Of a stretch of DNA of 19,770 bases, positions 14,421 through 17,369 are shown in pieces. The notes under the pieces are model-generated. The model had not been told where the DNA came from and did no database searches. It saw only the letters and a list, made by a program, of their open reading frames with translations. Source of the stretch: a virus. Its lineage: Duplodnaviria > Heunggongvirae > Uroviricota > Caudoviricetes. Where the stretch lies: the IMG/VR virus record IMGVR_UViG_2695420763_000003; one strand, given 5' to 3'. Position numbers and translations under genes: made by a program. Every line of letters begins with the position of its first letter. Position 1 is the stretch's first letter.

Positions 14421-15167
14421 TTACTTCACAACCCTCATATTGCTGACATTTGGACGCCAGCTATCCCAGTTAAACGTCACCCATCGACCACCGTTCATGG
14501 TCATGCGGTCCATAATCCTCTCACCAAGAAGCGTACTCATTGCGGCATGATTCAGGTTTGTTAACATCCCGACACTGCACAGTGATGCTGTCCGGCGATC
14601 AATTATCTGGTGCAATACCACCTGCTCGTTTTTCGTCTCACGCTGAACGCCTATTTCATCCAGGACCAGCAAATCAACCCCGCAAAGCTCCTGTAAAAAT
14701 TTTTCCCCGGATTTGCCGTTGTCGTAGCTGTCATGCAACACGCTCATGACGTCAGACACGGTGACGATAATCACGCTGCGCCCCTTCACCATCAGCCGGT
14801 TGCCCATCGCCGCTGCAAGGTGATTTTTCCCGGTGCCGGTTTTACCGCTGAACACAAAATTCGTGCACCCGGTCATCAGTTCGTCAGCTATGGATTTGGC
14901 CTGGCTCAGCGCGTATTTTTGCCCGTCGTTCTGCACCTGATAATTTGCAAACGAGCATTTGCTGTGCAGAGGCTGGATGCCCGAACGATTCAGGATTTTT
15001 TCCACCCGCAACTGGCGATTCTGGCGGTTAATCTCCTCGCTGCGTTTTCGTCCTTCAGCAAGTTGCCATTCCCGCCACTCCTCCACCGTCCGGTACGGTG
15101 GAACCGACCCCTGTGGTGCAAGTCTGCGAATACGTTCAAGAACCCCAACTGCCGCAATGTTTTTCAT
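14421..15167 (-). CDS. DnaC-like replicative helicase loader (IstB-type AAA+ ATPase)
   Basis: 248-aa ORF with Walker A FSGKTGTGKNHLAAAMG and Walker B LLVLDEIG. Confidence 0.9.
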   Translation of the reverse strand: MKNIAAVGVLERIRRLAPQGSVPPYRTVEEWREWQLAEGRKRSEEINRQNRQLRVEKILNRSGIQPLHSKCSFANYQVQNDGQKYALSQAKSIADELMTGCTNFVFSGKTGTGKNHLAAAMGNRLMVKGRSVIIVTVSDVMSVLHDSYDNGKSGEKFLQELCGVDLLVLDEIGVQRETKNEQVVLHQIIDRRTASLCSVGMLTNLNHAAMSTLLGERIMDRMTMNGGRWVTFNWDSWRPNVSNMRVVK

Positions 15168-15173
15168 GACACG

Positions 15174-16151
15174 TCACCCCCTGAATCCCGGCGGTATTTC
15201 AGTGTCCGGTTCAGAAATGTGATTCACGCAACGCTGCGCAGGCGAACGCCCCAGGCGGATAACCAGTTCATCCCATTTTTCCCGGAGTTTTGCCGGACTC
15301 ATGATGTTTTTTACCCAGAACGAATCCCGCTGGAGACGCCCAAACATTTCACAAATTTGTCTGTGAGTTCTGCCATCCAGCATCCGCATTGTGCGAACGT
15401 CATTGGCCCATGCTGTCCAGTTGGGTTCTTTCGGTCTAGTGATCTCGCCATCATAGCTGGCCGCCTGCTCGTAAAGACTCACGATTCGTCCCCAGATCCA
15501 CTGTGCGCACACCAAATCTTCCTGACTTCCCCACTGGCGTTTTTTCGCACTGAACACAACCGCGTCAGGGTGTCGGGTTAAAAAATCCTGTTCAGCCGTC
15601 TGCGGGTCCGGTTGCGAAGCGTCCGGACAAGAAGATCTTTTATCTGACGGATCAGGTTTTAATACTGACGGATCGGGGTCAATCATCGCCCCCCTAATCG
15701 GCAGTTTTTTATCAACAGTTGATCCATCAAAATTTGACGGGTCAACCGTTGAGGGGGCAATATTTGACGGGTCAACTGTTAACGGGTCATTTTTTGCCGG
15801 GCTAATTTTTCTTTTCGGTTTATATGACTCACGCGCCGCCGCCGCAGCTGCTTCGAGTTTTTCCACATTAAGCCGATAGATATTGCTTACATTACGCCCA
15901 CCGACCTTACGCTCTTCCTTCGTCAGCCAGCCCTCTTTCGCCAGTTCTGCAATAGCCGATTTCACTGTGGATTCACTTCTTGCACCGATCTGACGCCGGA
16001 TAGTTTCAATGGCAGGCCATGACACGCCCTCGTCATTGCTGTAGTCTGCAAGACGGGCCATAACCGCCACCCTGGATAAGATCATGCCGGTGAAGGCGCA
16101 CCCTTCCCAGACAAGACCATGAAGCTTGCTGCTCATAAAACCCCCGAACAC
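15174..16151 (-). CDS. Replication initiation / primosome protein: N-terminal HTH domain, repeat-containing linker, C-terminal DnaT-like domain
   Basis: 325-aa ORF. The C-terminus ...NHISEPDTEIPPGFRG matches the conserved C-terminal tail of E. coli DnaT (...VSEPDSQIPPGFRG) as recalled. The linker PLTVDPSNIAPSTVDPSNFDGSTVD is encoded by the iteron array. Confidence 0.8.
   Translation of the reverse strand: MFGGFMSSKLHGLVWEGCAFTGMILSRVAVMARLADYSNDEGVSWPAIETIRRQIGARSESTVKSAIAELAKEGWLTKEERKVGGRNVSNIYRLNVEKLEAAAAAARESYKPKRKISPAKNDPLTVDPSNIAPSTVDPSNFDGSTVDKKLPIRGAMIDPDPSVLKPDPSDKRSSCPDASQPDPQTAEQDFLTRHPDAVVFSAKKRQWGSQEDLVCAQWIWGRIVSLYEQAASYDGEITRPKEPNWTAWANDVRTMRMLDGRTHRQICEMFGRLQRDSFWVKNIMSPAKLREKWDELVIRLGRSPAQRCVNHISEPDTEIPPGFRG
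15644..15790. repeat. Iteron array (candidate origin of replication) inside the initiator gene
   Basis: CTGACGGATC at 15644-15653 and 15665-15674. Near-palindromic TTTGACGGGTCAAC at 15733-15746 and 15763-15776. Related TCAACAGTTGA / GTCAACTGTTAACGGGTCA elements. A T-rich stretch follows at 15790-15812. Confidence 0.55.
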
Positions 16152-16158
16152 CGTGCTT

Positions 16159-16584
16159 TTAGTGCATCACCACAGCATTCCCTGCCGGGCCGCCGCGATT
16201 CATCTGGTCATACAAAACAACCGCTGACGCAACAAAATCATCGACATCCTTCACCAGCCGATCCCTCCGTTCGACGATCTCACGGTAATATTCAGAACTG
16301 TGGCTGCGCATACGGGCCACCAGCAAAGGCGGCATCGCCTTTTCGATCGCCGGTAACAGAGCCTGCATTTTTTCAACAGCATCAGGGGTGTCTTTATCCA
16401 GCCAACGGAAAATTTTCTGGGTATTACGGGCCAGGGCTTCCGGATGGCTGTCGTCATACAGTTCCGGGAACGTCATTCCCAGCTCGAAATACGCTTTGGT
16501 AATTTTCGCAGCCGGCACTTTTTCGCCGTCCGGATGCGCCCAGACATTCATCGCCATGCGGATGTGTTCATGCTTGATTTTCAT
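16159..16584 (-). CDS. YdaT-like protein (Rac prophage family)
   Basis: 141-aa MKIKHEHIRMAMNVWAHPDGEKVP... Sits immediately downstream of the Cro-like gene, with an AGGAG RBS. Family assignment is from memory of Rac ydaS-ydaT synteny. Confidence 0.55.
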   Translation of the reverse strand: MKIKHEHIRMAMNVWAHPDGEKVPAAKITKAYFELGMTFPELYDDSHPEALARNTQKIFRWLDKDTPDAVEKMQALLPAIEKAMPPLLVARMRSHSSEYYREIVERRDRLVKDVDDFVASAVVLYDQMNRGGPAGNAVVMH

Positions 16585-16874: not shown

Positions 16875-16943
16875 AGAATACCCACAGGTAAACAAAAGTC
16901 AATACCCACAGGTTGTTTACCTTGCGGTAATCGCATCTATTAT
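16875..16943. promoter_or_regulatory. Divergent promoter/operator region of the immunity switch
   Basis: Direct repeats ATACCCACAGGT at 16878-16889 and 16902-16913. Inverted repeat GGTAAACAA (16887-16895) / TTGTTTACC (16913-16921). Minus-strand promoter TTGACT-16-TATTCT overlaps the repeats. Plus-strand -10 TATTAT (16938-16943) lies about 6 nt before the repressor ATG, implying a leaderless mRNA. Confidence 0.55.
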
Positions 16944-16949
16944 TTACCT

Positions 16950-17369
16950 ATGGACAAATATGAATTTAGACGACAGCAACTCATCAAAATTCGTGATGAG
17001 AAATGCGATGGTAAAGCGGTTAACGTGGCCAGAAAGATCGGGCGCGAGCCTTCTTATGTATCAAGAATGTTGTACCCAGAGGGGAAAAAGGGAAAAAAAC
17101 GGATCGCTGATGATATGGTGGAGATTATCGAAGAGTCCTTTGGGTTACCCCGGGGATGGATGGATGGTATCGTTTCATCATCAACGAACACAGCCTCCAG
17201 TTATGAAACAAGGGTTCTAACGCCACGACAACGTATTTTTTTAGATCTCTTAGACGAACTGCCAGAAAGTGAAGCGGATAAATTATTAAAAACTCTTGAA
17301 GAGAAAAAACAGTATTACAATATGATCTACGAAGAAATCCGTAAAAAGAAAGCACAAAACGCATCATAG
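16950..17369 (+). CDS. dicA: Prophage repressor (DicA-like HTH protein)
   Basis: 139-aa ORF divergent from the Cro-like gene, with HTH segment AVNVARKIGREPSYVSRML. The C-terminal ...LLDELPESEADKLLKTLEEK resembles the DicA C-terminus as recalled. No SD sequence upstream. Confidence 0.7.
   Translation: MDKYEFRRQQLIKIRDEKCDGKAVNVARKIGREPSYVSRMLYPEGKKGKKRIADDMVEIIEESFGLPRGWMDGIVSSSTNTASSYETRVLTPRQRIFLDLLDELPESEADKLLKTLEEKKQYYNMIYEEIRKKKAQNAS

Follow-up and report, generated by a model that had tools for sequence, protein, structure and literature searches.

A candidate replication origin built of TGA-N4-TCA repeats inside the initiator gene of a Rac-like lambdoid prophage

Introduction

In phage lambda, the replication origin (ori-lambda) lies in the linker-coding middle of the gene for its own initiator, O. 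Repeated sites (iterons), each with internal twofold symmetry, are placed between the coding regions for an N-terminal DNA-binding domain and a C-terminal recruitment domain, together with an A/T-richer stretch. Here we analyse a 19,770-nucleotide (nt) stretch of viral DNA (IMG/VR record IMGVR_UViG_2695420763_000003; hereafter the window), which is part of a Rac-like lambdoid prophage of Escherichia coli and has an O-like initiator gene with an array of short palindromic repeats in its linker-coding part. Sequence comparisons make it likely that the segment at approximately 15625-15806, within this linker, is the replication origin of the prophage.

The locus follows the layout of lambda, with a candidate for the A/T-richer stretch, and its C-terminal domain is truly homologous to that of O. 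The two differ in several respects. The N-terminal domain of the window initiator is of the HTH_36 family, whereas that of lambda is Phage_rep_O; its sites are 10-12-bp palindromes with an in-frame 15-bp period plus a distal pair, whereas lambda has 18-19-bp iterons at 20-24 bp; its A+T-rich region is much weaker; its partner is a DnaC homologue instead of lambda P; and it ends in a DnaT-like tail. The initiator thus shares the C-domain of lambda O, and not its Phage_rep_O domain or P partner, and belongs to the broader O-like family PHROG 391.

Three other systems are close. The Rac prophage carries an active origin, oriJ (PMC3945230; on oriJ, see also Potrykus et al. 2000 as cited in PMC11014345), and its module in K-12 (racR-ydaS-ydaT-ydaU-ydaV-ydaW) has the gene order of the window, i.e., repressor, YdaS-like, YdaT-like, initiator, DnaC-like and next gene. 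The Rac initiator YdaU ends in ...AIPPGFRG, and the middle of its gene holds ATGTTCAAACA repeats in both orientations, after which comes an A/T-rich stretch containing GATC sites (L173:2505-2590). In contrast to the window, however, YdaU has a DUF1376 N-domain, and its repeats are unrelated in sequence. It is plausible that the ATGTTCAAACA stretch inside ydaU is the position of oriJ. The mEp460-type initiators (mEp460_ev081 and mEp460_4F5) share the C-domain and tail (91.7% over 145 residues) and the same linker junction, but have an unrelated N-domain and a linker with CATCGGGTCAAAATG repeats. Finally, DopC of Cellvibrionales and Oceanospirillales has been described as a domesticated O-like gene with an HTH_36 domain and a DnaT C-terminal motif (PMC5509034). 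It resembles the window initiator at both ends and in its adjoining helicase-loader gene; however, DopC is chromosomal, has a lambda-P-like partner (DopE) and is reported to be without iteron-like sequences (PMC5509034), whereas the window gene is prophage-borne, with an iteron-like array and a DnaC-homologue partner.

Results

A palindromic repeat array in the linker of the initiator gene

A sequence-only reading of this DNA had proposed four TGACGG(A/G)TC repeats, two of them part of a near-palindrome, inside the coding region for the initiator's linker. The repeats are real: TGACGGRTC has exactly 4 matches in the window (plus strand, at 15645, 15666, 15735 and 15765) where 0.26 are expected, all of them inside 15645-15773, and a count of 4 was reached in 0 of 200 dinucleotide-preserving shuffles. 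The near-palindrome TTTGACGGGTCAAC is likewise present, at 15733-15746 and 15763-15776. While the number of exact copies stands, their extent was underestimated, since the element is larger and comprises approximately 9 sites, namely a 15-nt array plus a distal pair. The features of the initiator gene are as follows, in window coordinates:

15174-16136, minus strand: initiator gene, O-like, 320 residues plus stop (open reading frame list, translation, RefSeq and PHROG 391)
15852-16136, minus strand: N-terminal winged-helix/helix-turn-helix domain, residues 1-95, presumed to bind the iterons (Pfam HTH_36)
15786-15830, no strand assigned: T-rich tract (read on the plus strand) on the N-domain side of the array, approximately 68-73% A+T, encoding KPKRKISPAKN
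15702-15806, minus strand: iteron array of approximately seven 15-nt units, codons 111-145, with the palindrome (T)TGA-N4-TCA(A) at the centre of each unit
15645-15683, minus strand: distal pair of GATCCGTCA sites (15666-15674 and 15645-15653), 21 nt apart, with ATTGACCCC ahead
15625-15670, no strand assigned: candidate unwinding segment (least stable 40-mers of the gene; putative function)
15606-15632, minus strand: conserved junction TCTTGTCCGGACGCTTCGCAACCGGAC (peptide SCPDASQPD), from the origin/N-domain module to the C-domain module
15237-15593, minus strand: C-terminal domain, residues 182-300, homologous to lambda O (BLASTP and tblastn)
15177-15236, minus strand: DnaT-like tail QRCVNHISEPDTEIPPGFRG, residues 301-320 (DnaT, NCBIfam and PDB matches)

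Tandem Repeats Finder places 5.2 copies of a 15-nt period at 15712-15789, for which a 30-nt period also scores, and a separate repeat search gives 5 copies at exact 15-nt spacing. A better description of the recognised unit is the palindrome TGA-N4-TCA. The window has 12 such sites, of which 4 fall in this element; any other 160-nt stretch has at most 1. Two of the array units are perfect (TTGACCCGTCAA, 15764-15775 and 15734-15745), three are good (ATGACCCGTTAA, TTGCCCCCTCAA and TTGATGGATCAA) and two are degenerate. The distal GATCCGTCA pair comes approximately 30 nt past the array in the sense of the gene, with a GATC inside each site. All repeats sit in linker codons for residues 111-165 of the 320-residue open reading frame, and as 15 nt correspond to five whole codons, the array is also read as a pentapeptide repeat (TVDPSN-like). 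RNA or DNA hairpins were rejected as an explanation: the arms have 4-5 bp around a 2-4-nt centre and are, we judge, too small to fold alone.

That the surrounding gene encodes a replication initiator, as had been supposed, is borne out by a full-length match to PHROG 391, "replication initiation O-like" (E 2.1e-115; residues 1-320 on profile positions 1-298 of 298), and by the HTH_36 domain at the N-terminus (residues 25-71; 27.9 bits, cut-off 25). The DnaD_N match is sub-threshold in Pfam, and the N-domain otherwise gives weak MarR/PaaX-type matches; sequence searches of the PDB yielded only the DnaT tail and weak MarR-type matches. Pfam did not find Phage_rep_O (PF04492) in the window initiator, while lambda O itself scores E 5.7e-36. 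The C-terminal part, on the other hand, aligns with lambda O (residues 153-300 of the window protein versus 145-277 of O; 35% identity, E 5e-26 by BLASTP), and tblastn gives matches to the O genes of lambda, 933W, H-19B and P27. Since the four annotated iterons of lambda stop at O codon 145, directly ahead of the start of this alignment, the array sits at the place of the lambda iterons, in line with the lambda O/ori arrangement that the sequence-only reading had suggested.

Selection on the DNA versus the encoded peptide

To compare this gene with its relatives, we define type A as initiators with the HTH_36-type N-domain of the window. A scan with a type-A-only alignment as seed and one genome per species gave 80 loci from dozens of Enterobacterales genera; codon bias was determined for 66 orthologues, codon conservation for 64 distinct genes, and a weight matrix was built from 311 units. 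Conservation in orthologous initiator genes, on which the earlier proposal had been staked, is found throughout, as array and distal pair are present in every type-A orthologue examined. The number of units ranges from 3 to 8 across orthologues and differs by exactly 15 or 30 nt between near-identical E. coli alleles.

When synonymous codons were resampled 20000 times with the peptide held constant, 4 or more GAYCCGTCA arose with a probability of 5e-5, while no trial gave 4 TGA-N4-TCA or attained the lag-15 identity of 0.61 seen in the gene. Encoding the repeated peptide is therefore not enough to account for the repetition in the DNA. Codon usage in the linker is correspondingly skewed, with TCA and TCT making up 51% and 33% of serine codons (17% and 10% outside the linker) and AAA 96% of lysine codons (62% outside the linker). 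At pairs with the same residue, the fraction with the same codon is 0.90 in the 25-codon linker segment versus 0.43 in the N-domain. Compared with the N-domain, the linker has the higher nucleotide identity (0.80 versus 0.72) but the lower amino acid identity (0.66 versus 0.81, the N-domain being on average 81% identical over the 64 orthologues). The distal pair is nearly codon-invariant (GAT in 64/64, CCG in 62/64, TCA in 54/64 and GTA in 63/64) and, with its flanking A/T-rich codons, is the most codon-invariant part of the gene.

The weight matrix of the unit reads TCTGAC[G/C]C[G/A]TCAAAA, with 1.3-1.6 bits at third-codon positions and the lowest conservation at the centre of the palindrome. 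This pattern is the signature of a predicted two-half-site binding site, and not of a codon-structured repeat. In the closest subgroup to the window (Edwardsiella, Erwinia, Mixta and Morganella), units occur both as TTGACCCCTCAA and as its complement TTGAGGGGTCAA, which encode IDPSN and VEGST, respectively, so that the palindrome is kept while the peptide changes. Taken together, five independent results point to the DNA and indicate, at the level of sequence, that the repeats are under nucleotide-level selection.

The repeats follow the N-domain

The type-A N-domain is joined to at least 4 different C-domains, and the TGA-N4-TCA array and the distal pair are always retained. SfIV and PhiR49_1 have unrelated immunity and regulator genes, yet carry the same repeats with the same initiator N-domain. 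The mEp460-type genes provide the converse case of a different N-domain with the same C-domain: their linker has 5-6 copies of CATCGGGTCAAAATG at 23/24-nt spacing (L086:1399-1528 and L088:1459-1597) and also holds three ACAGAGAAT repeats. The CATCGGGTCAAAATG copies are mutually out of frame and therefore cannot be peptide repeats. Rac YdaU (DUF1376) and lambda O (Phage_rep_O) each have mid-gene repeats of their own, so that four N-domain types (HTH_36, the mEp460 type, Phage_rep_O and DUF1376) go with four repeat types at the same place. Such covariation would be expected of an N-domain that reads the repeats, and supports the prediction that the initiator binds within its own gene.

Megablast matches to other phages begin at gene base 478 or 511, at the TCTTGTCCGGACGCTTCGCAACCGGAC junction. 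The TCTTGTCCGGACGCTTCGCAACCGGAC codons recur in SfIV, mEp460 and 733R5 as near-identical DNA, even though the sequence on either side differs, suggesting that TCTTGTCCGGACGCTTCGCAACCGGAC is likely a mosaic recombination boundary.

As a separate observation, e14-like ymfN genes of E. coli (L168 and L171) have the first approximately 79 residues of a type-A N-domain fused to unrelated, terminase-like sequence. The array is missing from these genes, which are decayed remnants of a type-A initiator.

A+T-rich segments, GATC sites and other motifs

In a nearest-neighbour stability scan, the least stable 40-mers of the initiator gene start at 15625-15631; they have approximately 65% A+T and rank in the top 2% of 40-mers of the window. 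The candidate unwinding segment defined by them overlaps the distal sites and three GATC (15634, 15650 and 15671), and by alignment the segment and the distal pair fall at the A+T-rich region of lambda, on the C-domain side. The T-rich tract that the sequence-only reading had placed after the repeats does exist (15786-15830). However, it lies on the N-domain side, which is the wrong side compared to lambda, it is not the least stable part, and in the main orthologue group it is absent, with G+C-rich sequence in its place. We therefore rejected it as the unwinding element, and such a role is doubtful.

Four GATC occur within 88 nt (15634, 15650, 15671 and 15721), whereas the window is otherwise poor in them (46 versus approximately 77 expected), and GATC is built into the codon-invariant GATCCGTCA sites across the 64 orthologues. 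Control by Dam or SeqA linked to this cluster is possible. Many orthologous phages have a DNA methyltransferase gene directly after the initiator gene.

The motif TTTTCCACA at 15859-15867 (plus strand), approximately 50 nt from the array in the region coding for the N-domain, fits the relaxed DnaA-box consensus TTWTNCACA at every position. An origin driven by DnaA or IHF was nevertheless rejected, given one exact DnaA-box-like 9-mer only (15859) and no good IHF site. An operator of the prophage repressor was rejected as well, because the immunity region does not contain the array motif and has a repeat of its own: two copies of AATACCCACAGGT at 16876-16920, where the repressor-like and Cro/YdaS-like genes diverge. 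These copies are probably operators, unrelated to the repeats of the initiator gene.

By eye, lambda CGTCAGAGAATTCTGGCGAATCC (L172:1160-1186), to the right of the A+T-rich region, resembles a conserved and imperfectly palindromic sequence of the main orthologue group, CGTCAGAATCTGGCGGGGATCC (palindrome CCGnCAGAnTCTGnCGG), that the window's own subgroup lacks. CGTCAGAGAATTCTGGCGAATCC and CGTCAGAATCTGGCGGGGATCC may be a shared origin element.

The DnaT-like tail and the helicase loader

The initiator ends in the DnaT-like tail that the sequence-only reading had noticed, and the DnaC-like protein that it had mentioned is encoded by the next gene. Of the 20 tail residues, 14 (70%) are identical to E. 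coli DnaT residues 160-179, and the tail matches positions 159-179 of the NCBIfam DnaT model as well as the PDB DnaT chains 2ru8, 6aep and 9zbt. Membership of the DnaT family was rejected, since only the last 20-21 residues match (16.7 bits in NCBIfam versus a cut-off of 201). The label "primosomal protein I" on orthologues is thus an over-annotation that stems from the tail. Over 243 residues, the loader shares 48% identity with E. coli DnaC (E 8e-88), and it matches NCBIfam PRK12377 (E 1e-152).

A tail of the type ...IPPGFRG is common to the window initiator, Rac YdaU (L173:2120-2977) and host DnaT (L091:1979-2518), and in all three cases the gene is directly upstream of a DnaC-family gene; a GFRG-tailed initiator followed by a DnaC homologue mirrors the dnaT-dnaC operon of the host. 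In initiators, two different C-domains are followed by the GFRG-type tail, and a further three PHROG families match through the tail alone. We tallied tails and partners for the 72 of 80 loci that have a full-length initiator and a readable downstream open reading frame. Lambda-P-like downstream genes were found only with W-E-x-x-L-type tails (8/8) and never with the GFRG type, and GFRG-tailed initiators are usually without any phage loader. A single orthologue of the genome scan, in an uncultured Serratia metagenome-assembled genome (L150), has a DnaC-like downstream gene; its tail, ...GGTDDDFI, recalls the acidic C-terminal tail of SSB and not GFRG.

How DnaT recruits DnaB/DnaC has been stated to be unknown (PMC13377028). 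We tentatively suggest, as a possibility that we would not put at even odds, that the ...(E/D)xxIPxGFRG-COOH tail is a portable docking peptide for a DnaC-type loader or for the DnaB-DnaC complex. If so, phage initiators with this tail would hijack the DnaC route of the host or use a phage copy of DnaC, the host dnaT-dnaC operon would be a domesticated remnant of an initiator-loader module, and the tail would be a pointer to the route by which DnaT recruits DnaB/DnaC in replication restart.

The prophage and its replication module

An identical copy of the window in E. coli strain Res13-Lact-EA06-22 has ompW as a neighbour; the RefSeq label of the initiator in this copy is "helix-turn-helix domain-containing protein". 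Besides the initiator gene, the replication module comprises the following genes, with a DUF1627 gene after the loader on the minus strand:

16950-17369, plus strand: repressor-like gene, 139 residues
16568-16849, minus strand: YdaS/Cro-like gene
16159-16584, minus strand: YdaT-like gene
14421-15167, minus strand: DnaC-family helicase loader gene, immediately downstream of the initiator (48% identity to DnaC; PRK12377)

Of 5426 complete E. coli genomes, 1518 contain the segment coding for the N-domain and linker with at least 80% coverage, including those of O157 and O111 strains. Related modules are found in Shigella serotype-converting phages and in prophages of Klebsiella, Edwardsiella, Erwinia, Providencia and others. 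A scan of viral contigs with the whole initiator returned only copies with 99-100% identity.

Discussion

We propose the following working model for an origin at approximately 15625-15806. After derepression, rightward transcription from the immunity region would yield the initiator. Its winged-helix N-domain, probably as a dimer, would bind the twofold-symmetric TGA-N4-TCA sites of the 15-nt array as well as both distal GATCCGTCA sites. The multi-protein complex so formed, a counterpart of the lambda O-some, would stress the adjacent least stable segment at approximately 15625-15670, and the lambda-O-like C-domain and the DnaT-like tail would then bring in host DnaB complexed with the neighbouring phage DnaC homologue. 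We infer the binding by the N-domain, the site of unwinding and the route of helicase recruitment from the comparisons presented above.

Several points weigh against an origin at this site. The A+T-rich segment is modest (approximately 65%, top 2%) and far less extreme than that of lambda. At 15 bp, the sites are spaced more closely than in lambda (20-24 bp), and adjacent ones come to lie on almost opposite sides of the helix. Frequent recombination at the mosaic junction could in part be responsible for the high nucleotide conservation nearby, but it would leave unexplained why amino acid identity is below nucleotide identity. The prophage copy may be defective, and its origin may not fire in this strain. 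Lastly, we found no published binding, unwinding or origin-activity experiment for this initiator family, in a search that did not extend to older subscription reviews. The same holds for a published description of the repeats: none was found, and the motif strings matched unrelated primers only, but the older subscription literature was not covered, so that an earlier prediction is possible.

Among the alternatives, the one that survives best is that the repeats are true binding sites of the initiator that serve mainly for autoregulation, for copy-number control (handcuffing) or as a roadblock, with opening and helicase loading taking place elsewhere. In plasmids, iterons are known to act in control as well as in initiation. 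The instability of the local A+T-rich segment is only moderate, with comparable patches at 15695-15735, 15790-15830 and 15855, and the exact DnaA-box-like TTTTCCACA lies at 15859; both would fit such a role. We nonetheless regard a mainly regulatory array as unlikely, because the homologous position in lambda is the origin itself, because the distal pair and its flanking A/T-rich codons are the part of the gene that is most codon-invariant across the 64 orthologues, and because the replication module showed no further conserved non-coding candidate.

It is more improbable still that the repeats form a regulatory or partition-like site bound by another protein, such as a host factor or the repressor/Cro-like or YdaT-like protein. 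Palindromic 10-12-mers are typical of operator half-site pairs, and the GATC in the conserved distal pair could be targets for SeqA or Dam. However, the motif is absent from the immunity region with its own AATACCCACAGGT repeat, and the repeats are kept beside the unrelated immunity genes of SfIV and PhiR49_1 but changed when the N-domain changes. Least probable of all, by a little, is a by-product of a slippage-made, disordered, low-complexity pentapeptide linker without DNA function: the 15-nt period is a multiple of 3 and encodes (T/I)VDPSN or SKSDx repeats, and unit number shifts in slippage-like steps, but the codon-level results largely exclude it (the synonymous sites are the most conserved, with P at or below 5e-5 on resampling), the peptide varies while the palindrome is kept, including in inverted units, and in mEp460-type and lambda genes the corresponding repeats do not keep the reading frame.

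We therefore favour the origin reading. Its general principle is textbook knowledge and the advance is incremental; to a specialist, the expected arrangement with a different DNA-binding domain and a different repeat will be unsurprising. It does, however, explain why annotation pipelines mislabel such initiators as "primosomal protein I", and it offers a concrete candidate origin of approximately 180 bp, with a recognition motif, for a very common replication module. Possible uses are the prediction of replication compatibility among prophages and the building of new compatible replicons. For the biology of these phages, it would mean that the domain-plus-iteron modularity of lambda extends to initiators with unrelated DNA-binding domains.

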